A stretch of DNA of 64,000 bases from Magnetococcales bacterium DCbin4. GTDB lineage: Bacteria > Pseudomonadota > Magnetococcia > Magnetococcales > UBA8363. Positions 10,486 through 63,078 of this stretch are shown here, in pieces. The position numbers and the translations under genes are program-made. The notes beneath the pieces were generated by a model that did no database searches, was not told the origin of the DNA, and saw nothing but the letters and a program-made list of their open reading frames with translations. Numbering within the stretch: position 1 is the first letter of the stretch; each line of letters begins with the position of its first letter. Where the stretch lies: NCBI GenBank assembly GCA_002753735.1, contig PEAN01000009.1, positions 15,926 to 79,925 on the forward strand, read 5' to 3'.

Positions 10486-11310
10486 ATGTCAGATCAAAGA
10501 GTTTCTCTTGATGGGATCAGGGTTGGGTTATCGATTTCCGACAGCCCCGATTTGATCCGGTTGGGATTGGACAAGGAACATGTCCATGATGCCGTGATCA
10601 CTCTGGCGACAGCGCTGCTTGCAAAAGGGGGGGAGATCGCCTATGGCGGTGATTTGCGTCCGCAAGGTTTTACCCGAACATTGATCCGTTCAGCCCAGAT
10701 GTACAATGACACCCGCCAGGCTGGTGATTCTCGGTCTTTCGCCAAAATATTCAGCTATCTGGCTGGGGTGGTCAGACAGAATTGGACCGCATCGGATCGG
10801 GTCAAATGTCGTCGGGAATTTGAGGGGGCGGTTGCCATCATTGACGACTTTCCCGCTCCTGGAAATCCAGATCTGGTGGATCCTTGGCCCGCCTCGCTGA
10901 CTTCGATGAGGGAAAGAATCACCGATGATTGTCGTGCCTATGTGTTCATGGGGGGCCAGGTGACAAATTTCAAAGGGGCCCTACCCGGTATTGCCGAGGA
11001 AGCTTTGTTGATGTTGAAAAAAAAGAAACCCATTTATCTGGTGGGAGGCTTTGGTGGTTGTACTTCTGACCTGATCAAGTCGATCTGGGGGTTGAAACCA
11101 CCGGTCGATCTGGACCGTGAAGCGGCGAAGAATGATTTTCGCTATCTCAAGGCACTCGAACAAATTGCCCTTTATAAGGACCACTTTCCAAATAATGGTC
11201 TGACTCTGGAAGAAAATCATGCACTTGCTGCAATGGATGATTCCAATCAGTTCCTTCCCATGATTCTTCGGGGAATTTCCAAAGCGTGTCAGACTAAAAA
11301 AAATTATTGA
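10486..11310 (+). CDS. SLOG / LOG-like Rossmannoid domain protein with no additional domain
   Basis: YGGDLRPQGFT and FMGGQVTNFKGALPGIAEEALLMLKKKKPIYLVGGFGG parallel the two glycine-rich loops of LOG/SLOG proteins. ATG 10486 is preceded by GGAGA. The ORF track uses TTG 10474. Confidence 0.5.
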   Translation: MSDQRVSLDGIRVGLSISDSPDLIRLGLDKEHVHDAVITLATALLAKGGEIAYGGDLRPQGFTRTLIRSAQMYNDTRQAGDSRSFAKIFSYLAGVVRQNWTASDRVKCRREFEGAVAIIDDFPAPGNPDLVDPWPASLTSMRERITDDCRAYVFMGGQVTNFKGALPGIAEEALLMLKKKKPIYLVGGFGGCTSDLIKSIWGLKPPVDLDREAAKNDFRYLKALEQIALYKDHFPNNGLTLEENHALAAMDDSNQFLPMILRGISKACQTKKNY

Positions 11311-11453
11311 AAGAAAAAAGGGGGCTTAAGGGATTGCCCCCAGGACTTTGATTTTGATTTTAAATAAAAAGGTTTCCATGCTTAAGCTTTTGACCTTGTT
11401 TCTAAATTGATCACCATGGGGGCAATCCCTTAAGCCCCCTTTTTTCTTTCAAT
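11306..11453. mobile_element. MITE-like element, 148 bp, with perfect 37-bp terminal inverted repeats
   Basis: ATTGAAAGAAAAAAGGGGGCTTAAGGGATTGCCCCCA at 11306-11342 equals the reverse complement of 11417-11453. Each arm contains a GGGGGC/GCCCCC hairpin. The stop codon of the SLOG gene (11308-11310) lies inside the left arm. Confidence 0.7.
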
Positions 11454-11519
11454 AATCCCGAACCGGGGAGGCCCCTGGGCAGTTACCAATCATTTTGAAT
11501 GTCAACAGGCCCGGAATAT

Positions 11520-12917: not shown

Positions 12918-15698
12918 TCAACCTTCTTCCCCTTCGTCTATTTCCGTTACCTCAGGTGCTTCCGATACTTCAGATACTTCCGATACTTCCGATACTTCAG
13001 ATACTTCAGATACTTCCGATACTTCTGATTCTTCCGACTCGGCAATCCGGGTCACCGAAGTCACTCGTTCACCTTCGGCCACACTCAAAATCGTCACGCC
13101 CGTGGCATTGCGTCCCGTCAGGCGGATGGTATCGACATTGGTGCGCAATACCGTCCCTTTGTCGGTGATCAACATGATCTGGTCTCCCGGCCAGACCGTC
13201 AGATTGTCTACCACGGGTCCATTGCGGGTACTCACGCCAATCCCAATCACCCCTTGTGTTCCCCGTCCCTTGGTGGGAAACAACGCTTCTGCCGTTCGTT
13301 TGCCAAAACCATTCTCGGTGATCGTCAGGACCTGACAGCCTGAACCCGGCTCCAGGACATTCAATGCGATCACCCGATCCGTCCCTTTCAGGCGCATCCC
13401 ACGGACGCCACGCGCCACCCGGCCCATGCGTCGTACTTGTATCGTGCGAAAACGAACCGCCTTGCCATCACGGGAAAACAACATGATCCGACCCGGACGT
13501 TGAGTATCAGAGACCTCCGCCTCTCCCACCGCTTCTCCCAGCTCTTCGTCGTCGTCGGCATCGTCGATGACTTCCTCTTCTTCCTCTTCGTCGACCCGTT
13601 CTTCATCTCCGCCGCCACTACGTTCTTCCGGCAGGATCGGCAGCAAGGCAACGCCGACAAGGTCGTCACCATCACGCAGATCGACCGCACGCAAACCATT
13701 CATGCGAATATTGGCATAGGCGGACAAAACCGTTTTTTTGATCAATCCCAAACCGGTGGCAAACAATAATTCCCAATTGCCCCATTCCTCATCGGCGATG
13801 GGGGCGGGGAGGATCTGACGAACTTTTTCGTTTTGTTCCAACGACAACAGGTTGACGATGGGCCGACCCCGCGCCGACCGTGACGCCTGGGGAATTTCAT
13901 AGACCTTCAACTTGAATACCCGTCCGCGATCAGTGAAACAAAGAATGGTGTCATGCGTCGAGGCCACGAACAGTTGCGAAATGAAATCTTCATCCCGCAT
14001 CCCCGTTGCCGACTTTCCTTTGCCGCCGCGCTTTTGAATCCGATACTCATCGCTGGGCTGGCGCTTGATGTAGCCGGCATGACTGACGGTGACGATCATC
14101 TCTTCATCAGCGATCAGATCGGCAGCACACAGGTCAGCCCCCCCATCCACGATTTCAGTGCGACGGGCATCACCAAACATCGTTTTGATTTCGGTGAGTT
14201 CGTTCTTGATGACCTCCATCAAAACCGTGTCGGAGGCCAGAATGGAGCGCAACCGGGCGATCTGAGACAAGGTTTCCTCGAACTCCTGGTGGATCTTCTC
14301 CTGCTCCAAACCCGTCAAGCGGTGCAGGCGCATGTCGAGGATGGCCTGGGCCTGGGTATCGGTCAGGCGATATCCCCCGGGGACGAATTGGGGTGATGCA
14401 ACGTCTCCTTCTCCCATGGCGCGGGCCAGCATCACTTCCACCGGTCCACGCTCCCATAATTCTTCCGTCAGCCAGGTCTTGGCAACCGCAGGGTTGGGGG
14501 CTTTGCGGATCAGTTCGATGATACGGTCAATATTGGCCAGGGCTACTGCCAGTCCTTCCAAAAGGTGGGAGCGGGCCTGGGCCTTGTTTAATTCAAACTG
14601 CGTGCGCCGGGTGACCACCTCGCGACGGTGGTTGACGAATTCATTCAGCGTTCGGGAAAGGTTGAGCAGTTCCGGCTTTCCCTGGACCAGGGCCAGCGTG
14701 TTGATGCCGAAACTTGATTGCAGCGCGGTGTGTTTGTACAGCAGGTTCAACAAAAGATCGGGTTGGGTGTCACGTTTCAGTTCAATGACGATGCGCATCC
14801 CCTCCCGATCCGATTCATCGCGCAGATCAGAGATGCCGGTGATTTTCTTTTCGCGAACCAGTTCGGCGATCCGTTCCACCAGTCGGGCTTTGTTGACCTG
14901 GTAGGGCAACTCCGACACGATGATCGCTTCGCGACCATCCTTTTTTTGTTCGATGCTGGTCCTGGCCCGGACTACGATGGATCCGCGTCCCGTTTCATAG
15001 CCACTGCGAATCCCAGCACGGCCATGGATGATGCCACCCGTGGGAAAATCGGGGCCGGGAACAAATTTCATGAGTTCCTGAACACTCAGATGGGGATTGT
15101 CGATCAGGGCACAGGTGGCGTCAATGATTTCACTCAGATTGTGGGGCGGAATATTGGTCGCCATCCCAACGGCGATCCCGGAGGAACCATTGATCAACAG
15201 GTTGGGAAATTTTGCCGGGAGTATGACCGGTTCCATGAGGGAGCCGTCATAGTTGTTGACAAAATCGACCGTTTCCTTGTCGATGTCGGCAAGCAGTTCT
15301 CCCGCCAGTCGGGTCATGCGCACTTCGGTATAACGCATCGCGGCAGCCGAATCGCCATCGACCGAGCCAAAGTTCCCCTGACCATCAACCAGGGGATAGC
15401 GCATGGAAAAATGTTGCGCCATGCGCACAATGGTGTCGTACACGGCGACATCGCCATGGGGATGATATTTACCAATGACATCACCGACCACACGCGCCGA
15501 TTTTTTGTAGGCGCGATTCCAATCGTTGCCCAATTCGTTCATGGCAAAGAGGACTCGGCGATGAACCGGTTTCAAGCCGTCACGGACATCGGGCAACGCC
15601 CGGCCCACGATGACGCTCATGGCGTAATCGAGGTAGGAGGTCCGCATTTCGTCTTCGATGTTGACGGGAATCTGTTTGGCGCTGTCGGCGTCGCTCAT
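12918..15698 (-). CDS. gyrA: DNA gyrase subunit A
   Basis: 926 aa. It has [31 protein letters not shown], the [16 protein letters not shown] region and the AAAMRYTE active-site Tyr context. The CTD pinwheel carries an acidic insertion and a repetitive acidic tail. Confidence 0.95.
12964..13035. repeat. 9-bp tandem repeat (GATACTTCN) x7 plus one degenerate unit, encoding the (SEV)n tail of GyrA
   Basis: Read directly from the sequence. Units start at 12964, 12973, 12982, 12991, 13000, 13009 and 13018, and the degenerate unit starts at 13027. Confidence 0.9.
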
Positions 15699-35064: not shown

Positions 35065-38000
35065 TCAATGGGCAGCGGGATCCGTTTGGATTCTTGCAAG
35101 GAGTCCATGCCGTTCAAAAAAGGCATCCAACGTCTTGCCCGCATCCTCAAAATCGTAGCGGCCCACCTGGTGGCGCAGGGGCAGGAGTTCCTTTTCCATG
35201 CGTGCATCCTTCGCTGAAGTCAGGAAGGCATCGATGGCATCTTCGGTCTCCGTATCGAATTCGGCGATCATCGTCCGAATTCTCAACAAGGTTTCGAAGG
35301 CACGATCCATGGGATTCCCTTCAGTTCCTTCCGGATCAGAATGCACGGTTGTGTTCACGATTGGAAGCACGATTTGCATGGCACCGGCAAAATCGTACGC
35401 ATCAAGATGTTGCGTCACCCGGGAAAGGGTTTCAGCCAACGGATCGCTTTCGGGGATCGAAGCCCGCAGGATCGCACTCCATTCAGCCGCCTCTGAATCA
35501 TACTCTTTAATCATATCAAGCAGTTTCTTGAACCCTTCATGACCATCCGTTCGCATCTTGACCGGTGTGACCTCGGTGGGGGATGAGGTTTCGAGTCCTT
35601 TGCGGATGGCATGGATGACCGCTGAAAGCGATTGCTGCAACGAGGTCAGAATCGATTCATCCGGGTCGGTTTGTCCTTGTATGAGAAGGGTTTCAAGTTT
35701 TCCCGTCTCACTTTGCAGGGATGTGGCACCGACACTGCCCGCAGTACCTTTGAGGGTATGGGCGGTGCGAATGGCCCGTGTCCGGTCCCCTGCGGCAAGG
35801 GCACGACGAATTTCATCGACGGCATCCGCTTGATTGGTGGCGAACTTGTCGAGCAGCTTGCGATAGGAGCGCAGATTGCCACCGATGCGGTTCAAACCGG
35901 CGGCATGATCGACGCCTTCGATGCCGGGCAACGGTTCGGCCGATTCGGGTTGGGGCGTATCGGGGAAGGAGGGTTCATGGGATGGGATGCGTTCACCCGG
36001 TTGGATCCAGCGGGCGAGGGTGGCGAACAGTTCCCGGGGATCGATGGGTTTGGCCACATGGTCGTTCATCCCGGCATCCAGGCATTGTTCCCGGTCTCCC
36101 GCCATGGCGTTTGCGGTCATGGCGATGATGGGAAGATGCTGATATTTTTTAAATTTACGAATTTCTTTCGTCGCCGTGAGGCCATCCATGACCGGCATCT
36201 GGAGATCCATGAGGACGGCGTCGAAGGCTTCCTGACCCACCTTATCGACCGCGATGCGGCCATTGTTGGCGACGATGACCGTCAAGTGGGCCAGTTCCAG
36301 CAATTCTGTCGCAATCTGACGGTTGATTTCATTGTCTTCCACCAACAAAATGCGTGCTCCCCGGATGGCGGACACCTGTTCGATTCCCAAACCGTTGCTT
36401 TTGGGTTCGGTGGGATGGGTCGATCCTTCACGGCCCAAAGCTCGAAGTGTCGCATCCAGGAGGGAGGAGGCATTGATCGGTTTGGTCAGGATTCCATCCA
36501 CTTGCTGTCCCTGCATCATTGACTGCATCTCCTGTGCATCGTAGGCGGTCACGATGACGACCCTCGGAGGCCGCTTCAGGGAAGCGTCGGACTTGATCCT
36601 TCTGGTGGCGGTCATTCCGTCCATGATCGGCATTTTCCAATCCATGAATACCATCCGGTAGGGGGTTCCGTTCTGATCATGCCTCTGGATCATTTCCAAC
36701 GCTTCGGCCCCATTGGTGGCCAGTTCAACATGAAAGGAAAGGCTTTCAATCAGTCGTTGCATGATTTCGCGGGCAATGGCGCTGTCGTCGGCCACCAGTA
36801 CCGAAAGATGCCGCAGATCGGAATCGAGCATGGGGCTGGCGGGCAGTTCGTGTGCCGACCTTTTGAAGACGGCCGTAAACATGAAGGTACTTCCCTGACC
36901 CGGTGTACTCTCCACCTGGATGGTGCCATCCATCATTTCGACCAGCCGTTGACTGATGGTCAATCCCAGACCGGTACCGCCATATTTCCGGGTGGTGGAG
37001 GAATCGGCCTGGCTGAAGGATTTGAACAATTTGCCCATCTGTTCTCCGGTCATGCCGATGCCGGTATCGATGACGGAAAAACGGAGTGTGACCTGATCCT
37101 GGTATTTCTTTACGGGTTCAACCTTGATGATGATTTCGCCTTGTTCGGTAAACTTGACGGCATTGTTGGCCAGGTTGATCAAAACCTGTCCCAGCCGCAA
37201 CGCATCGCCCACCAGTGCGTTCGGGGTCTCCGGTTGGACGAATATCAGCAGTTCCAGCCCTTTTTCCCGTGTCTTGACCGTGATCAGGTTGGATAGATGA
37301 TCCAAAACCTGTTCCAATCTGAACGGAATGGCCTCCATATCCAGTTTGCCCGCCTCGATCTTGGAAAAATCGAGAATGTCGTTGATGATCCCCAGCAGGG
37401 AATTGGCAGCGGTATGGATTTTGTAGACATAACCGTGCTGTTTGGGGTTCATCTGGGTCTGCAATGCCAGGTGGCTCAGGCCGATGATCGCATTCATCGG
37501 TGTCCGGATTTCGTGACTCATGTTGGCCAGGAAGTCGCTTTTGGCCCGGGTGGCCTCTTCGGCAATCCGGCGTGCGGCATTCAGTGCCGCTTCCGAATAG
37601 TTGCGTTCCACCAGGATCGCCAGGGTATTGCCGACCGCCCTGAGAATTTCTTCTTCCCACGGAGCCTGGGGATGTCCCGCATCCACAAAAAGGGTCAGTA
37701 CCCCAAAAACCTGGTCATGGGCGCAAATGGGAACGATGTAGTGGCCATGATCCACCATCGGTTCGGATTGAATCTCGTGTCGCGCATCCAGATGGTTGGT
37801 AAAAAGAATCGTGTTGGTGGCTACGGCCTTTCCGCACAGGCATGCCTCCTTGGGAACGGTTCGGCAGGGGAATGAACTCAGGGGTGTCAGGCCACTTTGG
37901 ACGACCATTTCCAGGGTGTCACCGGCGTCGTTCATCAGCAGGATGGCCCCCTTGTTTTTAATCGCAAGAAAGGAGATGCCCAGAATGATCTCCAATGCCC

Positions 38001-43802: not shown

Positions 43803-43836
43803 GGTAACTATTCAGCACCCCATTTGCATTGAAATT

Positions 43837-44033
43837 ATTGAGAAAAAAAAGGGGTCTGGGGGATTGCCCCCAGGGTGTTGACTTTGTTTTTGAATTTAAA
43901 CAAAAAGGTTTCCATGCGCTGCTTTTGACTTTGTTTTTAAAGTCGAAAACAAAATCAGAAGCAAAAATTGGAGCTTTTGATTAAAAGTCAAAACCCTGGG
44001 GGCAATCCCTCAAGCCCCCTTTTTTCTTTCAAT
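43837..44033. mobile_element. MITE-like element, 197 bp, same family as 11306-11453
   Basis: The left arm is ATTGAGAAAAAAAAGGGGTCTGGGGGATTGCCCCCAGGG. The right arm reverse-complements to ATTGAAAGAAAAAAGGGGGCTTGAGGGATTGCCCCCAGGG. The core shares AAAAAGGTTTCCATGC with the 148-bp copy. Confidence 0.65.
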
Positions 44034-44110
44034 AGTTCCAATATGGAGGGGGTGCTGAATAGTTACAAAATGAGTTCCTTAACGTGCTTGACAAGGTTTC
44101 GACCTGTCCA

Positions 44111-48583: not shown

Positions 48584-49423
48584 ATGTCTGAAGTTCAGAT
48601 CCGAAAAAAAGTCACCCTCGATTTTGAAAAACTTCGCTCCCGTGGTGTGTTGACGCCCGACTCCGGTCGCAGCGTGGTCGCAGAAGAGTATCGCGTCATC
48701 AAACGGCCGTTGTTGCTGGGGGGGTTGGGCAGTGAAGGGGGAAAGAGTGACAAACGCCGGAAGAAAATGATCATGGTGACCAGCGCCTTTCCCAAGGAGG
48801 GAAAGACGTTTACCGCCATCAATCTGGCCATGAGTTTGGCGGCAGAGATGGATTCGACGGTGCTTTTGGTCGATGGCGATGTCGCCAAGCCTTCGGTGGC
48901 GCGTATTCTTGGGTTCAAGGCCAAGGAGGGATTGATCGATTGCCTGTTGAACAAGGTGGATAATTTTAACGATGTATTGATTCGCACCAACGTTCCCAAA
49001 TTGATGATTCTCCCTTCGGGACGGCGGCACCATCATGCCACCGAGTTGTTGGCGAGTGAGAACATGCGGCTGCTGCTCAACCAGATCATGGAAGATCCTG
49101 ATCGGATCGTGGTGTTTGATTCGCCGCCATTGTTGGTGACCACCGAGGCACGGGAACTGGCGCGCAACATGGGACAGATCGTCATGGTGGTGGAGGCGGA
49201 GCGGACACCGCAGTTTGCCGTCAAGGATGCCTTGCAGCAGTTGGACAATCTGGAAATCGTGGGTTTGGTATTGAACAAGATCCGTAAACGTTCCAGTGGT
49301 GGATATTATTATTATGGCTATGGTGGTTATGGGGGATATGGTGGGTATGGTTCCTATGGTGGATATGGTTCTGAAGAGCCCCAGGGCAAACGGGGATGGT
49401 TCAAGCGGTTGTTCGGGTTGTGA
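48584..49423 (+). CDS. Exopolysaccharide tyrosine autokinase (BY-kinase ATPase subunit)
   Basis: Walker A-like SAFPKEGKT, Walker A' VLLVDGD and Walker B IVVFDSPP. It has a C-terminal Tyr cluster, GGYYYYGYGGYGGYGGYGSYGGYG. Confidence 0.8.
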   Translation: MSEVQIRKKVTLDFEKLRSRGVLTPDSGRSVVAEEYRVIKRPLLLGGLGSEGGKSDKRRKKMIMVTSAFPKEGKTFTAINLAMSLAAEMDSTVLLVDGDVAKPSVARILGFKAKEGLIDCLLNKVDNFNDVLIRTNVPKLMILPSGRRHHHATELLASENMRLLLNQIMEDPDRIVVFDSPPLLVTTEARELARNMGQIVMVVEAERTPQFAVKDALQQLDNLEIVGLVLNKIRKRSSGGYYYYGYGGYGGYGGYGSYGGYGSEEPQGKRGWFKRLFGL

Positions 49424-50549: not shown

Positions 50550-51443
50550 ATGGCCTTTGATGGACATCTCCTTTCCCCTGTCGTCAACGCATTGACCGTT
50601 GATGTCGAAGATTATTTCCACGTTGCGTTGTTTGAGGAGCACATCTCCGATGACCGATGGCACTCCATGGAACATCGGGTCGAGGCAAATACCGACCGCA
50701 TATTGGAATTGCTTGATCAGAAGGGGATATCGGGTACTTTTTTCATCCTTGGCTGGGTTGCGGAGCGCTTTCCTGGTTTGGTGCGACGCATTGTGGATCA
50801 GGGACATGAAGTGGCCAGCCATGGGATGCGTCATCGACGGGTGACGACGCAATCCCCGGAGGAGTTTCTTCAGGACGCTTCACAATGTAAACAGATGCTT
50901 GAGGATGTGAGTGGTACGGCGGTGCTGGGGTATCGGGCATCGACCTATTCGATTGGCCGGGATAATTTGTGGGCGCTGGATGTGTTGGAGCAGGCGGGTT
51001 ATCGATACAGCTCCAGTATTTATCCCATTCGCCATGATCTTTATGGTTGGCCTGAAGCGCCACGTTTTCCGTTTCATCCCAGGCAGCAGGCGGGACGGGG
51101 GGATGGTTTGTTGGAAATCCCTGTTTCAACTTTGGAATGGTTTGGTCATCGCCTGCCGTGTGGTGGTGGGGGGTATTTTCGGTTTTATCCTTTGTTTTTC
51201 TCTCTTTGGGCATTGCGTCATCTCAACCGGAGTGAGGGGAAAAGTGCGGTCTTCTTCCTTCATCCATGGGAGTTGGATCCTGGGCAACCGCGGTTGTCTG
51301 GTTTGCCGCTGAAGGTTCGTTTCCGCCACTATTTGAATTTGGCAAGAATGGAAACCCGGTTGGAACGTTTGCTGGTCGAATTTCGTTGGGATCGGATGGA
51401 CCGGGTGTTTGCGCATTGGCTGGGGAAGGAGGTGGGGGGATGA
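50550..51443 (+). CDS. Polysaccharide deacetylase, exosortase (XrtA)/PEP-CTERM-locus subfamily
   Basis: NALTVDVEDYFHV...GTFFILGWVAERFP...GHEVASHG (NodB-type motifs). The gene order matches PEP-CTERM EPS loci. Confidence 0.8.
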   Translation: MAFDGHLLSPVVNALTVDVEDYFHVALFEEHISDDRWHSMEHRVEANTDRILELLDQKGISGTFFILGWVAERFPGLVRRIVDQGHEVASHGMRHRRVTTQSPEEFLQDASQCKQMLEDVSGTAVLGYRASTYSIGRDNLWALDVLEQAGYRYSSSIYPIRHDLYGWPEAPRFPFHPRQQAGRGDGLLEIPVSTLEWFGHRLPCGGGGYFRFYPLFFSLWALRHLNRSEGKSAVFFLHPWELDPGQPRLSGLPLKVRFRHYLNLARMETRLERLLVEFRWDRMDRVFAHWLGKEVGG

Positions 51444-52492
51444 GTCAAGGCGGCGTGGAGGGAATGACGGTCCGGGTGATGGAATCACGGGATCGGCCTG
51501 CATGGGATCGGTTTGTCATGGGGGCGGGGCAGGCGACTTTTTTTCATCGTTCTGGTTGGCAGCGGGTATTGGCGGAGGCTTTTGGTCATCAGACCTGGTA
51601 TCTCATGGCGGAGATGGATGGGGTGGTTGTGGGGGTATTGCCTTTGGGGCGTATCAGGAGTTGGTTGTTCGGGGATGCTTTGATTTCCACTCCTTTTTGT
51701 GTTTATGGGGGGATTGTTGCCGAGGATGGGGCGGTTGCCTTGATGTTGGAGCGGGAGGCGGTTGCTTTGGCGCATCGGTTGGGGGTGGATCATTTGGAGT
51801 TGCGTGCTTCGACTGCCATGCATCCGCAGTGGTTGGTCAAGGATCTTTATTGTACTTTCAAAAAGGAGATTTCTTCTGATCCCGAGGTCAATTTGAGTGC
51901 CATTCCCCGCAAGCAGCGGGCCGAGGTTCGTCGCGGGATCAACAAGGGGTTGGTGGGGATGGTGGAGCAGGATGTGGCTGCGGCGTGTTATGACATTTAT
52001 TCGGAGAGTGTCCATCATTTGGGGACTCCGGTTTTCCCTCGCCATTATTTCGCCCTGTTGAAGGATGAGTTCGGCGATGATTGTGATGCTTTGGTGATTC
52101 GTCATGAATCGACCCCGGTGGCGGCGGTTTTGAATTTTTATTTTCGCGATCAGGTGTTGCCTTATTATGGCGGAGGGGTTGCTGCGGGACGGGCTTTTGG
52201 GGCGACGGCGTATATGTATTGGGATTTGATGAATCGGGCGGCTGGTGATCGGGGGGTCAGGGTTTTTGATTTTGGTCGCAGCAAGGTTGGGAGTGGCTCT
52301 TATGATTTCAAGCGGTATTTTGGCTTTGAGCCGCAGGCTTTGCATTATGCTTGTCATTTGGTGCGGGGGCAGGCGATGCCCAATGTCAGTCCGAATAATC
52401 CCAAATATCGATTGTTCATCGATTTTTGGAAAAAGCTTCCTTTGGGGGTGACTCGTATGCTTGGACCGATGATTGCCAAAAATCTTGGCTGA
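51440..52492 (+). CDS. FemAB-family (GNAT-fold) protein, PEP-CTERM-system associated
   Basis: ATG 51440 overlaps the upstream stop (ATGA). VRVMESRDRPAWDRFV...ATFFHRSGWQRVL fits this subfamily. The ORF-track start at 51266 lies inside the deacetylase gene. Confidence 0.75.
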   Translation: MSQGGVEGMTVRVMESRDRPAWDRFVMGAGQATFFHRSGWQRVLAEAFGHQTWYLMAEMDGVVVGVLPLGRIRSWLFGDALISTPFCVYGGIVAEDGAVALMLEREAVALAHRLGVDHLELRASTAMHPQWLVKDLYCTFKKEISSDPEVNLSAIPRKQRAEVRRGINKGLVGMVEQDVAAACYDIYSESVHHLGTPVFPRHYFALLKDEFGDDCDALVIRHESTPVAAVLNFYFRDQVLPYYGGGVAAGRAFGATAYMYWDLMNRAAGDRGVRVFDFGRSKVGSGSYDFKRYFGFEPQALHYACHLVRGQAMPNVSPNNPKYRLFIDFWKKLPLGVTRMLGPMIAKNLG

Positions 52493-52509
52493 TCGGGGTA
52501 TAAAAAATG

Positions 52510-53121
52510 ATCAAGAAAAAAAAGGGGTCTGGGGGATTGCCCCCAGGACTTTGATTTTGACTTTGATTTTGTTTTTGATTTTGGTTTTACTTCCCCCACA
52601 GGGGGTTTGGGGGACGAAGTCCCCCATGTTTTGCTTTTGTTTTTTTTCTGGAGGAATCTGTGAGGGATGACATGTTGGAGGGGTCATCCGCATTTTCGAT
52701 TTGGGTGTTTTAAGCGGAACCCTGGAGGATTTCGTCCCCCAGACCCCCTGTGGGGGATGGAAAAGCAAAAGCAGAACCCTGGAGGACTTCGTCCCCCAGA
52801 CCCCCTGTGGGGGATGGAAAAACAAAAACAAAAGCAAAAGCAGAACCCTGGAGGACTTCGTCCCCCAGACCCCCTGTGGGGGATGGAAAAACAAAAACAA
52901 AAGCAAAAGCAGAACCCTGGAGGACTTCGTCCCCCAGACCCCCTGTGGGGGATGGAAAAACAAAAACAAAAGCAAAAGCAGAACCCTGGAGGACTTCGTC
53001 CCCCAGACCCCCTGTGGGGGATGGAAAATCAAAATCAAAATCAAAGTCAAAATCAAAGTCAAAGTCAAAATCAAAGTCAAAGTCCTGGGGGCAATCCCCC
53101 AGACCCCTTTTTTTTCTTAAT
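52510..53121. mobile_element. Expanded 612-bp member of the MITE-like family with 41-bp terminal inverted repeats and an internal tandem array
   Basis: 52510-52550 matches the reverse complement of 53081-53121 at 40/41 positions. (TTGAYT)n hexamer tracts lie inside both arms. One inverted copy of the array unit is at about 52590-52627. Confidence 0.7.
52717..53030. repeat. Tandem repeat, about 5 units (57, 69, 69, 69 bp plus a partial unit)
   Basis: Units start at 52717, 52774, 52843, 52912 and 52981. The unit is GAACCCTGGAGGACTTCGTCCCCCAGACCCCCTGTGGGGGATGGAAAAACAAAAACAAAAGCAAAAGCA. The three 69-bp units are identical by eye. Confidence 0.9.
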
Positions 53122-53134
53122 CCTGGGGAATCTC

Positions 53135-54292
53135 ATGGAACGCAGGACAGAGACGCCCCTCCGCGTCGCCCTGGTTCGACAACGCTACACCCCATTCGGC
53201 GGAGCCGAACGGTTTGTAGACCGTGTCATGGAAACCCTGGTACGCCAGGAAATAACCGTCACCATCGTCGCACGACGTTGGCGAGGTGACGAAAAAAATG
53301 AATCAGCCCCCCGCTGCGATCCATTCCACATCGGACGTCTATGGCGCGACTACGGGTTTGCCCGTTGCGTGCAACAGCAATGGTTGGGCCGCCCGGAATG
53401 GGTGGTCCAATCCCATGAACGAATCCCCGGATGCAATCTGTATCGCGCCGGCGACGGAGTCCACGCCCAATGGCTACACAACCGCGCCCGAATACAAAAT
53501 CCCTGGCAATACCTGGCAACCCGCTTCAATCCCTATCACCGCTATCTGTGTGCCATGGAACGGCGCCTGTTTACCCATCCCTCCCTGCGCGCGGTCATCT
53601 GTAATTCAATAATGGTCCGTGACGAAATCATCTCCTGGTTCCAAATCCCCAAGGAAAAACTACACGTTATCTATTCCGGAGTGGATACGGTGACGTTCCA
53701 CCCCCGCTCCAAAGAAGATCATGAACACCATGTGCGTTCAGAATGGAATATTCCTCCGGATGCAACCCTGTTCTTGTTTGTGGGTTCCGGTTATGAACGA
53801 AAAGGATTGCTGCCATTGCTCCAGGCAATGACACAGGTGAAACATGCCTGGTTGCTGGTGGTGGGGCGTGACGCCCAAGAACGAAAATTCAAAAAGATTG
53901 CAAACAGATTACAGGTGTCGGACCGCGTCCGGTTTGCCGGCGGCCGCAAAGAGGTCCGCCCCTTCTACGCCGCCGCCGACGCCGTTGTCCTCCCCACCCT
54001 GTACGATCCATTCCCAAATGTCGCCCTCGAAACCATGGCCTGTGGCCTGCCATTGGTGACCAGCCATCAATGCGGTGCCTCCGATTTCCTTAAAGAGGGA
54101 CGCGCCGGATTGCTATGTGACGCCCTGGACGTCGCTACCTTGGCACAACACCTGACCAGCCTCATGGACCCCCAACTGCGATACCGCCTGGGAAACGAAG
54201 GCCGAACCCTGGCCGAAACCTTGACCTGGGAGCGGATGGGGGCAAGGCTGGATGCACTCTATCGGCAGGTGTTCAATGCTGACCTGAAATAA
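53135..54292 (+). CDS. Family 4 glycosyltransferase (WaaG/RfaG-like)
   Basis: From ATG 53135, LRVALVRQRYTPFGGAERF resembles the WaaG N-terminus. The C-terminal E-x7-E region is LPTLYDPFPNVALETMACGLP. The 156 codons upstream in the ORF track are read-through of the repeat. Confidence 0.8.
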   Translation: MERRTETPLRVALVRQRYTPFGGAERFVDRVMETLVRQEITVTIVARRWRGDEKNESAPRCDPFHIGRLWRDYGFARCVQQQWLGRPEWVVQSHERIPGCNLYRAGDGVHAQWLHNRARIQNPWQYLATRFNPYHRYLCAMERRLFTHPSLRAVICNSIMVRDEIISWFQIPKEKLHVIYSGVDTVTFHPRSKEDHEHHVRSEWNIPPDATLFLFVGSGYERKGLLPLLQAMTQVKHAWLLVVGRDAQERKFKKIANRLQVSDRVRFAGGRKEVRPFYAAADAVVLPTLYDPFPNVALETMACGLPLVTSHQCGASDFLKEGRAGLLCDALDVATLAQHLTSLMDPQLRYRLGNEGRTLAETLTWERMGARLDALYRQVFNADLK

Positions 54293-54303
54293 ATGACGGT
54301 ACC

Positions 54304-55344
54304 TTACGAGTCATGGAGGGGATCGGAAAATTTCGCCTTGATTTTCAGGATGTCCGGCAGAATGTCGAAGAAAATTCGTACCAAATGGGGATCAAATGCA
54401 GTGCCGGAACACTGGTTGATTTCATCAAGTGCTCGTTCCACCGTCCAAGGTTGTTTATAGGGACGTTTGGAAGTCAAAGCATCGAATACATCGGCCAGAC
54501 TGCAAATACGTCCCAAGAGGGGGATGGCATCGCGTGCCAATCCATGGGGATAACCATTGCCATCCCACCGCTCATGATGGGTCAGCGCAATCGTGTGGGC
54601 TGTGCGCATCAATAAAGAAGGCTCCTGATCAAGCAGTTTTCCGCCAAGGGTGGTGTGCGTTTTCATGATGGCAAACTCCTCGTCGGTTAACTTTCCCGGC
54701 TTGAGGAGAATGCTGTCGGGAATGCCGATTTTTCCGACGTCATGCATGGGGGCAGCATGCTGTAACAGTTCCTGCTCGTTGCGTGACAGGCCATAAGCCT
54801 GTCCCATCAGGGCGGAATAATGACTCATGCGATGGATGTGCTGTCCGGTTTCGTTGTCCCGGTATTCAGCCGCCTGTCCCAGCCTCCGGATGATCTCCAT
54901 CCGGGTGCGCAACAGTTCCGACTCCCGGTCCGCCAGGGTCTGGGCGATCCGTGCGGCGCGCAGAATGTAGTGCATGCGATATCCCAACAAACCCCAGTGG
55001 ATGGGCTTGGTGATGAAATCGGTCGCCCCTGCCTGATAGGCCCTCTCTATGGAGGAAAGATCATCCAGCGAGGTGGCCATTACGATGGGGAGATGCCGGA
55101 ATTCTTCCTTCCGACGGACGGTTTCGCAAAGTTCAAACCCATCCATCCCAGGCATCACCACATCGGTAATCACCAGGTCGTACCGTTCCTGCTGTAACAA
55201 AGTCCAGGCATGAAGGCCACCTTCCGCTTCCTCTACACGGAACCCCGCCTGCCTCAGTGCTTCACTCATGGGCAGCCGATGCAAAAATTCATCATCTACG
55301 ATCAGTATTCGAGAAACATGCGACTTGTCCATCTGCTGCTCCAT
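54304..55344 (-). CDS. Response regulator, REC + HD-GYP
   Basis: ILIVDDEF and TDVVMPGMDG (REC), then HDVGKIGIPD and HHERWDGNGYP (HD-GYP). Confidence 0.9.
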   Translation of the reverse strand: MEQQMDKSHVSRILIVDDEFLHRLPMSEALRQAGFRVEEAEGGLHAWTLLQQERYDLVITDVVMPGMDGFELCETVRRKEEFRHLPIVMATSLDDLSSIERAYQAGATDFITKPIHWGLLGYRMHYILRAARIAQTLADRESELLRTRMEIIRRLGQAAEYRDNETGQHIHRMSHYSALMGQAYGLSRNEQELLQHAAPMHDVGKIGIPDSILLKPGKLTDEEFAIMKTHTTLGGKLLDQEPSLLMRTAHTIALTHHERWDGNGYPHGLARDAIPLLGRICSLADVFDALTSKRPYKQPWTVERALDEINQCSGTAFDPHLVRIFFDILPDILKIKAKFSDPLHDS

Positions 55345-55923: not shown

Positions 55924-57873
55924 TCATCCCGATCCTTCCCGGTATTCGCTCTCTTGCGGCAGGATCAAAAACCGATTCAATGCTTCGGAAGCTTCAGCGA
56001 ACGTGGTGTGGCACTGACTGAAATGATTCGCTACGATATCAAACCGGGAATGGTTCTCTTCCATGGCGTGTCCCAGTCTGGCCAGACTTACCGCTCCCAT
56101 GCTCAAACTGGAGGATTTCAAGGAATGGGCCGCGAAACTGACTCCTTGACTGTCTTGTCGTTCAATGGCCAGTTCCAGATCGGATAACAGTTTTTGCGTT
56201 TGAGTCATGAAATGATCCATCATCCGATGCGGCAGCATGGGATTGCCTTTTTGCGCCAGATTCTGGATGCAGCTGAGTGTCGACAGATCCAGGATCGGGG
56301 AAGAATGTGCGGCATCCGTGTTCACATCTTTCCTCGGATGATCCCGATCTGGTGTCGGCAGCGGCGACCGGTCTTGTGATTCATGTGTTGCGAGGGCGTC
56401 ACTTGCGGTGGTCTTGGCGATCTGATCACTTTGATCATTCGGATCAATCCAACAACGCAAAACAGGTTCCAGGTCGGTCAGGTTGAGCGGTTTTTGCAAA
56501 AAGTCATCCATACCCGCCTCCAGGCACTCCTTACGGCATTCCTGCAAAACATGTGCGGTCAGGGCGATGATGGGGGTATGCCGGTTTGTGTGTTCCAGTT
56601 CCCATTGACGCAACTGTTTGGTGGTTTCAAAGCCGTTGAGCACAGGCATTTCGCAATCCAGGAAGATGGCATCGAAGGGGGTGGGGGTGGCACGGTAGAT
56701 CGAAATGGCATCCTGCCCGTTATTGGCGACTGTCACCTGGAACCCAAACATTTCGAACATCGCTGCCGCCACTTCCTGGTTGAGATGATTGTCTTCGACC
56801 AGCAGAATCCGCCTGCCGCGAAAATCACTGTTCGATATGGATTTACGTCGGGTCGGCTGCATGGAGATGGCCTTCCGGTCCCCGGCACGTTGTTTGCCGA
56901 ACCTGGCGGTGAACCAGAAGGAGGAACCCTGGCCCGGGGTACTCTCCACCTGAAGTTCTCCGTCCATCATGGTTGCCAGTCGCCGACTGATGGCCAACCC
57001 CAGACCGGTTCCGCCGAATCTGCGCGATATCGAAGTATCTTCCTGGGAATAATCCTGGAACAACTGTTGTTGGAATTCAGGAGAAATCCCCATCCCCGTA
57101 TCGGTCACCCGGAAACGGAGCAGGGTATCGATTTCACGTTCTTCCATAACTTCCACCACCACATCAACGGATCCATTTTCGGTAAACTTGATGGCGTTCC
57201 CGATCAAGTTGAACAAAATTTGTTTCAAGCGGTGGAAATCTCCCAGCAGGTGGATGGGAACGGAATCAGTTAGTGCACAGTGGAAATCGACTTTCTTACG
57301 TCTCGCCTGCGCCATGAACATGTCGTTGAGATCAACGATCACTTCGTCCAGATCAAAACGTAACAGTTCCAGGGACAGACGACCCGCCTGCATCTTGGAA
57401 AAGTCGAGGATGTCATTGATGATTCGCAGCAGAATGCGCCCGGAACGTTGGATGGCCTCCGCATAATGGCGTTGTTGGTTGGACAGTGCTGTGTGAAGAA
57501 GCAGATCTGCCATCCCCAATACACCATTCATGGGGGTGCGGATTTCGTGGCTCATGGTGGTGAGGAAGGCGGTTTTTGCCCGATTGGCATGTTCTGCTTG
57601 TTCTTTGGCCAATTTCAAGTTGGCTTCGATACGCTTGCGCTCGGTGATATTGCGCACGATCGACCACATGGCCTCGGGTTGGTCATTATTGTCGCGCAAC
57701 AGGAAGGTTCTTATTTCCACAGGAATGCGTGTTCCATCCTTGCGAATCCATTCTTTTTCACAGACCTGGGACTTGCCATGCGGCAGGATTTGTTGCGTGA
57801 AGACCTCGTCTTCGATTATGGGCCATGTTTTTTTCCGCCAGGTCGATCCCTGCCGGAGCACGTAACTCTTCAT
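55924..57873 (-). CDS. C-terminal part of a hybrid histidine kinase (half PAS, HisKA, HATPase, REC, HPt); probably one gene with 57758-59023 disrupted by a frameshift
   Basis: H-box [11 protein letters not shown]-boxes DTGMGI and GGTGLGL. REC motif [11 protein letters not shown]. HPt motif AHSLKSSS. The N-terminus begins in the middle of a PAS fold. Confidence 0.8.
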
Positions 57874-59832: not shown

Positions 59833-62800
59833 TCATCTATTCAATTCAAGCCCAAGTATATCTGAAATTTTTTCCAGGGTGGAAACTGCACTGAGAAATG
59901 CCAGACTGTCCACCTGTTGTTCCAACGTCGCCAAAAAGGGTCGTGCCTCGGAGAGGGTTCTGAGTTGGGGAATCAAAAGGGTCATGCTGTCCAAAGAGGC
60001 CATTTTTCTGCTACGCAACAATTGAGCAGTTGTCTTTATTAACAAAGAGAGCTTTTCCCGATCAACTTCAGGTTGATCGGAGGTCGTCGCGGAAGGTTCA
60101 ACCGCCCGGGGAAGATTGCTGATGCTGTTCAAGACCTCGGTCAGGGCACGGTCAAAGTCGTTCAAGCATCCATCCTGCGCCGATCCATATTCTTTCAGTT
60201 CCTGTTCCAGCGCCGAGGCGGTTTCAAAAACACGAATGGCCGAAATATTGCCCGCAATGCCGCGAATGGTATGGAGCAGGGTCAGAGCCTTGCCGATGGA
60301 CTCCCGGGTCGCCTCCGCAATCAGTTTTCGCACCTGTGCGACTGAAACCGCATGATCCCGGTAGAATTCCTCCAACAATGATCGGAACAATCGATGGTTT
60401 CCCCGGATGCGATGGATCGCCCCGACCGTATCGATTCCTGCCAACGTTTCGGTAATTCCCCAGGCATTGCCAAGGGGTTCCTGCTTGGGGACGGAAGGGG
60501 GAACGACTTCAGCGGTAACCCTGGTTTTAACCCATTGTTTGAGTAGTTGATAGAAGGTCAAACTGTCGATGGGCTTGGTCAGATGACCATTCATTCCCGC
60601 ATCCAGGCATTTGTCCATGACCCCCGACAGGGCATGCGCCGTCATGGCGATGATGGGAACATGCTCAAACGCCGGGATCTGCCGCAGATTCCGGGTGGCA
60701 CTGTAGCCATCCATCTCCGGCATCTCCAGATCCATCAGAATCAGGTCATGGACCCCATCGGGATCAATCGTCTTGGCCATGTTGACAACCTGGGATCCAT
60801 CGTTTGCCAAAGTGACCCGGATTCCAACCGCTTCCAGCATTTCCCGGGCGACCTGGCGGTTGATGGCATTGTCATCCACCAGCAAGACACGGGTACCGGC
60901 AAAATAACGGGCGATCTCTTCGTCCGGCACCGGAGGGGATCGTTTGATCGTATCCGCACTGACCGTTTCGCCCAGCAACATCAAAATGGCATGGAACAGC
61001 TCTCCCAGATGAAGCGGTTTTTCCACCACCCGGCACAGGGACAAGGGGCGTTGATGACACAGGCGCAGGGTCGAAGCGGTATCTTTCTCGGAAAACCGGC
61101 TCAGGATCAACCAGGGAACGGAACTGTGATCCAGAACCGTCAGGGGATGCGCCCGTTCCAGTACTCCCTTGACTTCCAGAACCGATTGATCAATCACCAG
61201 TAGATCAAGTTGTCCCCTGGGATGTTGGCCATCGAGCATTCGCTTGACTTCGTCGATGTTGCTCATCCCGATGGCTGTGAATCCAAGCCAGGAGAGAAAA
61301 TAATCAAGAGCGTGTTCCAGTGTGTTCTGGTGGCAGAAAAGGCCGATTCTTTTGTTGCTCTGATCCTTGGACAACCGGATACACGAAGGATCCGCCCGAT
61401 GATCATGCTTGAAACGGCAGGTAAAGAACATTTTCGTTCCTCGTCCCTCCGTACTTTCCGCATGCAAGGCCCCCCCCATCATTTCCGCCAGATTTTTGCT
61501 GATGGCCAAGCCCAGTCCCGATCCACCGAATTTGCGGGTGATGCTTGCGTCGGCCTGGGTGAACGGGGCGAAAATTTTGTCCATCTGTTCCCGGTTCATG
61601 CCGATGCCGCTGTCCTGGATGCAAAATTGCAGCTCAATCCAGTCATTCGACGTTGCCAGGGTTTCAACCCGCAGGATGATTTCTCCCTGGGCGGTAAACT
61701 TGATGGCGTTGCCAACCAGGTTGATCAAGACCTGTTCCAGCCGCAGTGGATCGCCGATCAGGGCCAGACGGCATTCGGATCCGATCTCCAAAATCAGGTC
61801 GATGTTTTTCTTGGATACCTGCTCGCTGAACAGATCGATGATGTAATCCAGGGTGTCGATCAGGCGGAATGCCGTCGCTTCCAAACTCATCCGCCCCGCT
61901 TCGATTTTGGAAATGTCCAGAATGTCGTTGATGATCCGCAGCAGAGAAATTGAGGCCCGGGAAATTTTTCTCAAATAATCGTGTGCCTGCTCCACCGGTT
62001 TTCTCAAGGCCAGATCCGACAATCCCATGATGGCATTCATGGGGGTTCGAAGCTCATGGCTCATGCGGGCAAGGAAATCAGACTTGGCTTCATTGGCGGC
62101 ATCTGCCTTGATCCGTTTTTCGGTTTCGGTGATGTTGTAGATGGCCATCGCCGTTTGCGTGGCCAGGGCGGACAATACCAATAATTCATGTCCTTCGAAT
62201 AAACCATCACCCCGCTTGTTGAGCACCATCATGACCCCGACCGTTTCATCATAGATCTTGAGGGGAGCGCTGATGACCGAGCGGGTGATGAACCCGGTTT
62301 TCTGATCGACCTTGCTGTTGAAGAAATTGACCGAATAGGCGTCGTCAATGATAATCCCGCGTCCTTCGCGAAAGGTGGCGCCAACAATCCCCTCGTTGAC
62401 AGGGATGTGCATGCCCGTGATGTCGTGTTCACCGGCGCAGGCATGACAGACCAGTTCTTTTTCGTTCGGGTCGAGCAACCACAAGGATGCGGCCTCGGAT
62501 TGGAGGTATTTGCGAATATTGACCACACTGACCCGAATGGCACTGGCCAGATCGGGTGCCTTGGCCAGGGCACTGCTGGTCCCCGCCAGCAGATCGACCA
62601 TCATGAATTGATACAGATACATGCCAAACGCTGCATGACGATCATGGAGCCGCATGGCGATGATCGGACCATCGACCCGGACGATGATGCAGGGAAACCG
62701 CATGCCATAGGGATCTGGTACCAGCGTCAGCAGGACTTCCTGCGCGATGAGATCGTTTCCGTACTCCTGTTCCGCCTGGATGGCAACCCCTACCAGGCTG

Positions 62801-63078
62801 ACATCCACCGTCATCCCTTCGATTTTGCGCTGGTCAGAAAAGGTCAGGACGACGCGGGTTTGATATTCCTCGCGCAACCATGAACGGGTCCGGGTGTTTT
62901 TTTGATTGTTTGCTGAAGAATCGGACATGGAAGGACAGGTACCCTGGCATGTTTTGGAACGGGTTGTCGAGACATGATCCCAATCGGACGGCATTGTACG
63001 CATCGATCTGGTGTTTGGGCCGGTGTTTGGGCCGGTGTTTGGGGAATTCCGGATCGGTGATCCCCCCGATTGCTTCAA
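59833..63078 (-). CDS. Hybrid sensor histidine kinase: PilZ, GAF, HisKA, HATPase, degenerate REC-like, REC, HPt
   Basis: PilZ motifs RSWLR (RxxxR) and DVSLVG (DxSxxG). H-box MSHELRTPMN. G-boxes DSGIGM and GGSGLGL. REC motif LMDLEMPEMDG. HPt motif LHTIRGIAG. The track start is a TTG, and ATG candidates are at 63003, 62994 and 62928. Confidence 0.8.
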   Translation of the reverse strand: MKQSGGSPIRNSPNTGPNTGPNTRSMRTMPSDWDHVSTTRSKTCQGTCPSMSDSSANNQKNTRTRSWLREEYQTRVVLTFSDQRKIEGMTVDVSLVGVAIQAEQEYGNDLIAQEVLLTLVPDPYGMRFPCIIVRVDGPIIAMRLHDRHAAFGMYLYQFMMVDLLAGTSSALAKAPDLASAIRVSVVNIRKYLQSEAASLWLLDPNEKELVCHACAGEHDITGMHIPVNEGIVGATFREGRGIIIDDAYSVNFFNSKVDQKTGFITRSVISAPLKIYDETVGVMMVLNKRGDGLFEGHELLVLSALATQTAMAIYNITETEKRIKADAANEAKSDFLARMSHELRTPMNAIMGLSDLALRKPVEQAHDYLRKISRASISLLRIINDILDISKIEAGRMSLEATAFRLIDTLDYIIDLFSEQVSKKNIDLILEIGSECRLALIGDPLRLEQVLINLVGNAIKFTAQGEIILRVETLATSNDWIELQFCIQDSGIGMNREQMDKIFAPFTQADASITRKFGGSGLGLAISKNLAEMMGGALHAESTEGRGTKMFFTCRFKHDHRADPSCIRLSKDQSNKRIGLFCHQNTLEHALDYFLSWLGFTAIGMSNIDEVKRMLDGQHPRGQLDLLVIDQSVLEVKGVLERAHPLTVLDHSSVPWLILSRFSEKDTASTLRLCHQRPLSLCRVVEKPLHLGELFHAILMLLGETVSADTIKRSPPVPDEEIARYFAGTRVLLVDDNAINRQVAREMLEAVGIRVTLANDGSQVVNMAKTIDPDGVHDLILMDLEMPEMDGYSATRNLRQIPAFEHVPIIAMTAHALSGVMDKCLDAGMNGHLTKPIDSLTFYQLLKQWVKTRVTAEVVPPSVPKQEPLGNAWGITETLAGIDTVGAIHRIRGNHRLFRSLLEEFYRDHAVSVAQVRKLIAEATRESIGKALTLLHTIRGIAGNISAIRVFETASALEQELKEYGSAQDGCLNDFDRALTEVLNSISNLPRAVEPSATTSDQPEVDREKLSLLIKTTAQLLRSRKMASLDSMTLLIPQLRTLSEARPFLATLEQQVDSLAFLSAVSTLEKISDILGLELNR

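Follow-up and report, generated by a model that had tools for sequence, protein, structure and literature searches.

A probable palindromic interspersed repeat with an amplified tract-bounded module in an operon junction of a Magnetococcales genome

In a 64,000-nt stretch of contig PEAN01000009.1 of Magnetococcales bacterium DCbin4 (the window, to whose positions all coordinates refer), a 614-bp element (52509-53122) lies inside the 642-nt spacer that separates a FemAB-like gene from the gene of a GT4 glycosyltransferase (GT4 below). We consider it likely that this element is a non-coding, modular, palindromic interspersed repeat, the largest copy of its family, sitting in an operon junction that is normally 11-20 nt long and carrying a tract-bounded module that has been amplified. 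Our best reading of the sequence restricts the family to Magnetococcales, and the closest analogies are with BOX, SPRITE and MITEs (miniature transposable elements with inverted repeats). The family is new, and this copy is an unusually expanded representative of an ordinary kind, the small interspersed palindromic repeats of bacteria. In our view it is in essence a selfish or neutral element with polarity as a side effect, and not a dedicated regulator.

Modular structure of the element

The outer 41 nt of the inverted ends (52509-52549 and 53082-53122) match at 40 of 41 positions and belong to two 80-nt arms (52509-52588 and 53043-53122) that are 90% complementary. The left terminal inverted repeat (TIR, 52509-52549) reads GATCAAG, A8 (52516-52523), GGGGT and the hairpin CTGGGGG-ATTG-CCCCCAG (52529-52546), and is followed by a hexamer tract (TTTGAY/TTTKKT)n (52550-52588; period 6, 6.5 copies in Tandem Repeats Finder, TRF). 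Next comes an inverted unit with a U-rich tail TGTTTTGCTTTTGTTTTTTTT (52589-52647, plus strand), which contains the hairpins CCCCC-ACA-GGGGG and TGGGGGAC-GAA-GTCCCCCA and matches the minus strand of the direct units at 52593-52613 with one mismatch. The unique centre of the palindrome (52648-52716) carries a small hairpin GGATGAC...GTCATCC and gave only chance matches of 11-16 nt in a blastn-short search of the window and the fetched loci. Five direct units occupy 52718-53024, each with a 43-nt core of two hairpins (52718-52760, 52775-52817, 52844-52886, 52913-52955 and 52982-53024). The start-to-start spacing is 57, 69, 69 and 69 nt, with (AAAAVC)n-AG tracts of 14, 26, 26 and 26 nt between the cores, and three successive 69-mers (52761-52967) are identical; TRF reports the array as 52761-53045 (period 69, 4.1 copies, 98% matches, score 549). 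A right hexamer tract (AAAATC/AAAGTC; 53025-53084; about 10 copies by TRF and module decomposition) leads into the right TIR (53082-53122, plus strand), composed of the hairpin CTGGGGG-CAAT-CCCCCAG (53085-53102), ACCCC, T8 (53108-53115) and CTTAATC, which ends 12 nt ahead of the GT4 start codon. The expected number of matches to the terminus and unit motifs in shuffled sequence is 0.00. The same inventory of 41-bp inverted ends, hexamer tracts, one inverted and five direct units, and three identical 69-mers had been given in a sequence-only reading of this DNA, and all of it was reproduced; the limits given there (52510-53121) differ from the tool-derived boundaries by one base at each end.

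Direct reading of the sequence shows that the unit derives from the hairpin of the terminus, a relationship that the earlier reading had not drawn. The unit segment GGGGGTTTGGGGGA-CGAAGT-CCCCCA corresponds to GGGGTCTGGGGGA-TTG-CCCCCA of the terminus, and the unit carries CCCCCACA in place of the terminal A-run, creating a second mini-hairpin. Two further resemblances were seen within the element: the beginning of the unique centre (T8-CTGGAGGAATCTGTG, 52640-52662) is similar to the right flank (T8-CTTAATC-CTGGGGAATCTCATG, 53108-53137), which includes the ribosome-binding site (RBS) and start codon of GT4, and a CCTGGRGG motif stands at the head of every unit and terminus. These may mark a recombination hot spot or be the trace of an older insertion boundary. 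Two other classifications of the array were considered and rejected, namely an attC-like reading and a CRISPR array, in which the 'spacers' would be identical (AAAAVC)n tracts and not unique sequences.

A family of palindromic repeats

The tail CCCCTTTTTTCTTTCAAT occurs eight times in the window, at five sites, against an expectation of 0.09. Family copy A (11302-11456) is 155 bp long with a 40/40 TIR and no G5/C5 unit, whereas copy B (43832-44037, about 206 bp) has an extra outer inverted repeat (43804-44066); both lie between convergent genes, as does a solo terminus with an outer module TTGAATGTCAACACGCCC at 759-815. A minimal or solo form at 2085-2133 consists of an A-run, a GGGGGC-N10-GCCCCC hairpin and a T-run (−20.8 kcal/mol); it lies downstream of the minus-strand gene 2141-4069 and is terminator-like in both directions. 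A terminus scan of metagenomes returned 32 loci. All belong to sample Ga0206226, and at least 11 of the elements are complete, with lengths of 186-276 bp. With five sites in the window and 32 metagenome loci, the proposal of a repeat family in which this element is an expanded copy holds.

Read inward, a family copy often begins with an outer module of TA followed by GGGCSTGTTGACATTCAATAAAATTATT; after this come the terminus AAAGAAAAAAGGGGTCTGGGGGATTGCCCCCAGGG, tracts of (TTTGNN)n, one or two copies of an AT-rich module AAATAAAAAGCTTCATTCTTCGCC and a short centre, and then the mirror image of these parts. TA precedes GGGCSTGTTGACATTC at 13 of 17 ends of full-length metagenome copies, which could represent a TA target duplication or a part of the TIR. 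Full-length copies were also seen to reach a second conserved end, GGGCSTGTTGACATTCAA, that contains a perfect TTGACA (L020, L025, L038, L042 and L044 among the fetched loci; 798-815 and 11495-11512 in the window); as an alternative to a TA target duplication, it could be an outward- or inward-facing −35 box. Family sites adjoin the 3′ end of a gene in 19 of 21 scorable cases and lie between divergent genes in the other two, a count in which the element 52509-53122 is mis-scored, since it really lies between tandem genes, 3′ of the FemAB-like gene yet 12 nt ahead of GT4.

The G5/C5 unit is absent from all complete metagenome copies, and the number of units is 0 in at least 13 other complete copies of the family. 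Scanning the genome collection with the unit core retrieved one real relative, L014 (PEAK01000052, a different Magnetococcales metagenome-assembled genome, MAG), in which one unit, a hexamer tract and a terminus form a half-element, and four matches in unrelated phyla that amount to G5/C5 hairpin repeats or junk and belong to no Rfam family. Amplification itself has a counterpart in the family: copy L042b holds an internal, tract-bounded 45-nt duplication (x2), and tract-bounded module duplication is therefore a family property. Scans of viral contigs with the unit, the terminus and the alternative allele described below gave no matches, so a phage origin is not supported, and a limited search of open-access text found no description of the family in Magnetococcales. 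In distant phyla, intergenic repeats of Dehalococcoidia, Chloroflexi and a cyanobacterium (L012:6283-6623, L010:2300-2480 and L013:1000-1040) have a near-identical double hairpin, CTGGGGG-loop-CCCCCAG-A-CCCCC-TGT-GGGGG, that matches no Rfam family; convergence among G5/C5 hairpin repeats could account for the likeness, as could chance.

The operon junction in related genomes

In the two nearest other species, whose GT4 proteins are 68-73% identical to that encoded in the window, the distance from the FemAB-like stop codon to the GT4 start codon is 11 and 20 nt. The 642-nt spacer is therefore best read as an insertion into an operon junction, although the divergence of the sister species is too great for an empty site to be placed precisely. 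In a third species, this junction holds an inserted PD-(D/E)XK gene. The GNAT/FemAB-like gene (51440-52492, plus strand) encodes 350 aa from ATG 51440 (the mechanical open reading frame, ORF, starts at 51266), a length that public assemblies also call, and matches Pfam Acetyltransf_6 (1.2e-14) and, weakly, FemAB. GT4 (53135-54292, plus strand; 385 aa) matches Glyco_transf_4 and Glycos_transf_1, and its exact product is present in five assemblies. Together they end a cluster encoding a Wzz-like protein, a P-loop ATPase, a UDP-GlcNAc 2-epimerase and a DUF3473 polysaccharide deacetylase, which we take to be an exopolysaccharide (EPS) locus of the exosortase/PEP-CTERM type. Pfam thus confirms the position, assigned beforehand from sequence, between the femAB-like and GT4 genes of an EPS locus.

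Contigs of GCA_015234015.1, JGI 3300003895 and Logan ERR711863 match the window with 100% identity, and those of four other Magnetococcales MAGs with about 99-99.7%. In one place (L007:11982-12023, equal to the end of L049), the GCA_015234015.1 contig passes into unrelated sequence after the first ~20 nt of the element, which is probably a chimeric join at the repeat.

Strain variation and amplification of the array

A module-by-module comparison of strains showed that all 43-nt unit cores are identical and that every difference consists of whole hexamers within the tracts. Relative to the window, the left tract is longer by one hexamer in L006 and L048; the tract after unit 1 measures 14 nt in the window and 26 nt in L048; the tract after unit 4 measures 26 nt in the window and 38 nt in L006 and L001; and the right tract contains 10 hexamers in the window, 7 in L006 and 5 in L001. 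As the flanking genes differ between strains by only 0-2 synonymous substitutions per ~1.1 kb, the tracts behave as fast microsatellites. The suggestion that the element is length-variable therefore stands for the tracts, which differ by whole hexamers between near-identical strains, but not for the unit number, which is five in both assemblies that span the array (the window and L006), with the reservation that L006 is a MAG assembly in which the array could be collapsed.

These comparisons, together with the identity of the three 69-mers, which suggests a recent event, are consistent with a model in which the right-arm module, along with its 26-nt (AAAAVC)4AG tract, multiplied until there were five direct copies. 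The likely mechanism is that the hexamer tracts on either side exchanged unequally or slipped during replication, and the tracts would go on slipping by whole hexamers between near-identical strains.

That the tandem array might be an artefact of assembly is suggested by the failure of most short-read assemblies in this error-prone region. We regard this as extremely improbable: two independent assemblies span the array with five units each, and further independent evidence comes from the ends of contigs in L001, L002, L003 and L048, where 1-3 units are present and their junctions agree.

Open reading frames in the array

The array is free of stop codons in all three plus-strand frames and one minus-strand frame, and all six frames are open inside the identical 69-mers (52761-52967). 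One consequence is the ORF 52667-54292, which encodes 541 aa compared with 385 aa from ATG 53135, an extension by 156 codons. The gene call in the public record of one assembly that spans this locus is a similar, 539-aa artefact, and contigs of at least seven assemblies end within the element. GT4 homologues are all 372-403 aa long (120 among the matches listed). From the sequence evidence we conclude that the array is non-coding, that the true start of GT4 is at 53135, and that the 541-aa ORF is an artefact of the open repeat. This conclusion is drawn because (i) the GT4 homologues have lengths of 372-403 aa and the module also occurs inverted in the left arm, (ii) the in-frame path to GT4 crosses the T8 tail, and (iii) the module is also found in the intergenic half-element L014 of another genome. 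The annotation hazard described by the sequence-only reading is thus real, as the homologue lengths, the 11-20-nt sister junctions and the public 539-aa artefact all attest.

We attribute the open frames to the unit being T-poor (7/69), compositionally segregated and a multiple of three in length. In mononucleotide shuffling, three open forward frames have P = 0.044 and six open frames P = 0.004. This null takes no account of the way in which A-tracts and G5/C5 hairpins are segregated, and we therefore do not take these values as selection for coding. Large pneumococcal BOX arrays are likewise open in reading frames (PMC3049150).

Translation of the repeat, whether it lengthened GT4 at the N-terminus by a low-complexity stretch (to 541 aa) or gave a repeat protein of its own, with peptides such as NPGGLRPPDPLWGMEK, would agree with the open frames, with ATG 52667 being in frame with GT4, with one assembly having been annotated in this way, and with the strain indels all being multiples of three. 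We judge it very improbable. Hexamer slippage produces multiples of six regardless, the listed homologues are too short to accommodate the extension, the closest species have 11-20 nt upstream of GT4, and both the T8 terminator tail in the path and the inverted and intergenic occurrences of the module speak against it. A search of protein databases with the array pseudo-protein found no homologues, but its candidate list was probably saturated by KQKQ words and hence uninformative. The extended ORFs have no exact match in protein clusters or contig records, and among Pfam and Rfam families none supports the repeat as coding or as a known RNA. Strain comparison of GT4 for signs of decay found 0-2 synonymous differences and was underpowered.

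Predicted terminators and the expression of GT4

Within 52000-53600, a terminator scan identified 10 sites where 2.7 are expected, and no sigma-70-like promoter was found in a scan of the same region. Read outward, the family termini present a GC hairpin followed by a T-run, similar to intrinsic terminators. On the minus strand, the left terminus forms an outward terminator-like site of hairpin, ACCCC and T8 (52546-52529 in the scan; −16.9 kcal/mol on folding). On the plus strand, the right end forms another (53085-53102, ACCCC and U8; −14.1 kcal/mol), and the inverted unit with its U-rich tail is, as modeled, the best candidate for a plus-strand intrinsic terminator inside the element (52608-52626 followed by UGUUUUGC…U8; two hairpins, −23.3 kcal/mol). 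Read on the minus strand, every one of the five direct units consists of hairpins and a U-rich tail. Minus-strand terminator-like sites recur in the units at 52800, 52869, 52938 and 53007, and the unit folds with −20.9 kcal/mol (plus strand) and −25.0 kcal/mol (minus strand). RNA folding, which the earlier reading had proposed as a check, predicts that the whole element forms one giant hairpin with a minimum free energy of −337 kcal/mol (z = −14.5); a z of −15.5 was also obtained for the whole-element fold.

If these predictions hold, a plus-strand transcript arriving from the FemAB-like gene would meet two terminator-like sites (~52608-52647 and then 53085-53115), and RNA that reads through would fold into a very long double-stranded stem and might, by analogy with Correia elements, be a substrate of RNase III. 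GT4 would thereby be attenuated or uncoupled from its operon. The stop codons of GT4 and of the convergent response-regulator/HD-domain gene are 11 nt apart (54292-54304) with no terminator between them, so mutual antisense read-through is likely, and the five units, which face the opposite way, may stop antisense transcription from the response-regulator operon. The element is thus probably polar on GT4 as modeled, and the proposed insulation of the last gene is plausible on the same grounds.

Whether such properties amount to a selected function is a separate question. A strain-variable attenuator or insulator of the contingency type, in which the number of tracts or units tunes GT4 and hence the structure of the EPS, would account for terminator-like sites on both strands directly upstream of the last glycosyltransferase, for hexamer tracts that differ between ~99-100% identical strains, and for the presence of different palindromes at this site in different strains; in pneumococcus, boxB modules can modulate the expression of neighboring genes (PMC3049150). 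We give this explanation only a small chance. The variation alters no promoter spacer, RBS distance or reading frame, the unit number is the same in both spanning assemblies, and other family members vary similarly at unrelated loci, as neutral slippage predicts; moreover, the analogous BOX, RUP and SPRITE repeats have been argued by Croucher et al. to be parasitic and not regulatory (PMC3049150). For a phase-variation switch there is no evidence in the strain variation, which touches no reading frame or promoter spacer. A related and slightly less probable idea is that the family supplies its lineage with portable bidirectional terminators and that this copy has been selected as an orientation-specific insulator of heritably variable strength. 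Five one-way modules would then face the response-regulator operon, one module and the end hairpin would face the EPS operon, and slippage-prone tracts ((ARN)n runs in the plus-strand RNA) would vary the dosage of the last EPS glycosyltransferase between strains.

The left arm (52502-52647) has also been compared with a small RNA (sRNA) gene. The Rfam GcvB model (RF00022) matches it over the whole model with 28.1 bits (E = 4.8e-4), and the layout, with a hairpin at the 5′ side, then a single strand rich in G/U and then a good predicted plus-strand terminator (52608-52647), is that of a GcvB-like sRNA. GcvB is a gammaproteobacterial sRNA. The score lies well below the gathering threshold of 42 bits, no promoter-like site was found upstream, and the G/U-rich stretch is the family hexamer tract, present in both orientations in all copies. 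We rejected this sub-threshold match as compositional and consider a GcvB-like gene highly unlikely; across the whole window, Rfam gave nothing at or above any gathering threshold.

Origin of the element and weight of the evidence

The principal rival account of the origin dispenses with transposition: a simple bidirectional A8-hairpin-T8 terminator at this junction would have been enlarged in place by palindrome extension and gene conversion from other copies of the family and then by tandem duplication. It draws on the conspecific alleles L050 and L004, which share the exact outer boundaries GATCAAGAAAAAAAA ... TTTTTTTTCTTAATCC around a different inner palindrome, GGATAGGGGTAGGGAAGGCCAAGACCTCCCCTCCCTCCGAACCGT. 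The arms of this palindrome are at least 45 nt long (L050:4085-4129, L004:1-56), both contigs break inside it, and no further copy was found in the searched data, viral contigs included. That other strains carry a different palindrome at this site had not been noted in the sequence-only reading. The junction of L052, with the same tail and yet another hairpin, and the minimal A-run/hairpin/T-run form at 2085-2133 also speak for this account. Against it stand the sister-species junctions of 11-20 nt, which have no terminator at all, and the sharp ends of full-length copies, with TA before 13 of 17, as in TA-targeting MITEs; in addition, dispersed copies have nearly the same termini, and some copying mechanism is therefore needed. 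We regard growth in place as unlikely, while granting it a real chance.

The interspersed-repeat interpretation of the element must itself be set against several observations that count against it. The element 52509-53122 has no target-site duplication (flanks …AAAAAAT on the left and CTGGGGA… on the right) and lacks the outer TA-GGGCSTGTTGACATTC modules of full-length copies, both of which also suit growth in place. Neither the window nor the fetched loci, in which no dedicated search was made, showed an autonomous insertion sequence partner. The allele of L050 and L004 is the main argument for a recombinational over a transpositional origin. The number of direct units does not differ between the two spanning assemblies, and six frames are open at once (P = 0.004), a fact that we attribute to the segregation of A-tracts from G5/C5 blocks. 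Finally, the predicted terminators may be weak, the right hairpin being separated from T8 by 5 nt (ACCCC) and the U-runs of the minus-strand units being interrupted, and GT4 is intact in all strains, with 100% conservation of the protein, so that some expression of the gene probably persists.

Comparison with known interspersed repeats

The kinship of the element to BOX and SPRITE is one of analogy and not of homology. Like BOX of Streptococcus pneumoniae (boxA - boxB(n) - boxC), it is a small non-coding interspersed repeat with paired end modules (PMC3049150), and it has an internal module in a direct tandem array and ORFs on both strands. BOX elements vary in the number of internal modules, their length variation between strains being greater in larger arrays, and slipped-strand mispairing and unequal crossover are among the mechanisms proposed for them (PMC3049150). 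Differences are equally clear: there is no sequence relationship by eye, the phylum is another, the ends are terminator-like, and the repeated module is a terminus-derived G5/C5 double hairpin with a hexamer microsatellite. Strains differ here in tracts and not in unit number (5 and 5), while among loci the number of units is 0 (at least 13 complete copies), 1 (L014) or, at this locus only, 5 direct and 1 inverted.

With SPRITE, the element shares an interspersed stem followed by a U-rich tract and the enrichment near the 3′ ends of genes, and SPRITE is suspected to act, or to have been co-opted, as a terminator (PMC3049150, PMC10969869). The GC hairpin with a U-tract, characteristic of intrinsic terminators, and the 3′-end location are both found here. 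However, SPRITE is a single stem with a tail, whereas the present element has two outward terminator-like ends, a long palindrome and a variable core, and the two have no sequence similarity.

Correia elements (CREE/NEMIS) and bacterial MITEs, like the family described here, have terminal inverted repeats, many intergenic copies and no coding capacity; they are typically 100-300 bp long, give rise to hairpin transcripts that RNase III can cleave, and affect the expression of adjacent genes (PMC2649163, PMC10969869). The inverted ends, the small size without real coding capacity and the multiple dispersed copies are those of MITEs, and full-length family copies are mostly preceded by TA, as are TA-duplicating MITEs. 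In contrast to Correia elements, the element 52509-53122 lacks a target-site duplication, no partner transposase was identified, no integration host factor (IHF) site or promoter was found in it, and its internal tandem amplification to five units is not a Correia feature.

The BIME-2/REP sequences of enterobacteria offer a fourth comparison, being mosaics of intergenic hairpin units and linkers that are amplified in tandem, to variable numbers, at 3′ ends or inside operons. In BIMEs, the orientation alternates from unit to unit and there is a link to RAYT transposases, whereas the present array consists of direct units with microsatellite tracts between them and long TIRs around them.

Implications for annotation and typing

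The importance of the element is mainly practical. It breaks short-read assemblies, yields stop-free pseudo-ORFs and lengthens the annotation of GT4 by about 155 codons. Because the family seeds spurious ORFs and has inflated the GT4 gene model, it is worth masking or modeling when the largely uncultured magnetotactic bacteria are annotated. The hexamer tracts and the array provide a ready-made variable-number tandem repeat (VNTR) marker for strain typing. Beyond the well-studied pathogens, the locus is a clear case of an operon junction that has received a palindromic repeat with terminator-like ends, and an example of microsatellite-bounded module amplification. If the predicted polarity is true, one species has lost the coupling of its last EPS glycosyltransferase to the operon. 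The current understanding of bacterial interspersed repeats is not overturned.

Other repeats and variants in the window

Upstream in the same EPS locus, the P-loop ATPase (48584-49423) has a C-terminal tyrosine cluster, GYGGYGGYGGYGSYGGYG, encoded by a 9-bp tandem repeat (x6, 49315-49369). This coding repeat is unremarkable; BY-kinase-type partners of EPS co-polymerases usually have such a tail. At ~57828, a dCache-PAS hybrid histidine kinase is disrupted by a 1-nt indel next to a T-run (CCATGTTTTTTT in the window, CCATTTTTTTT in L001). The protein is 1032 aa long in L001, L004 and L006; in the window strain it is divided, as 649 and 421 aa, between the minus-strand gene 55924-57873 and an upstream ORF. 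A 9/18/27-bp tandem repeat (12942-13037) lies inside the long minus-strand ORF 12918-15698, a perfect 12-bp repeat (x2.8) is found at 63010-63043, and three paralogous hybrid-kinase segments are located at 36000-37400, 56480-57440 and 60560-61950.

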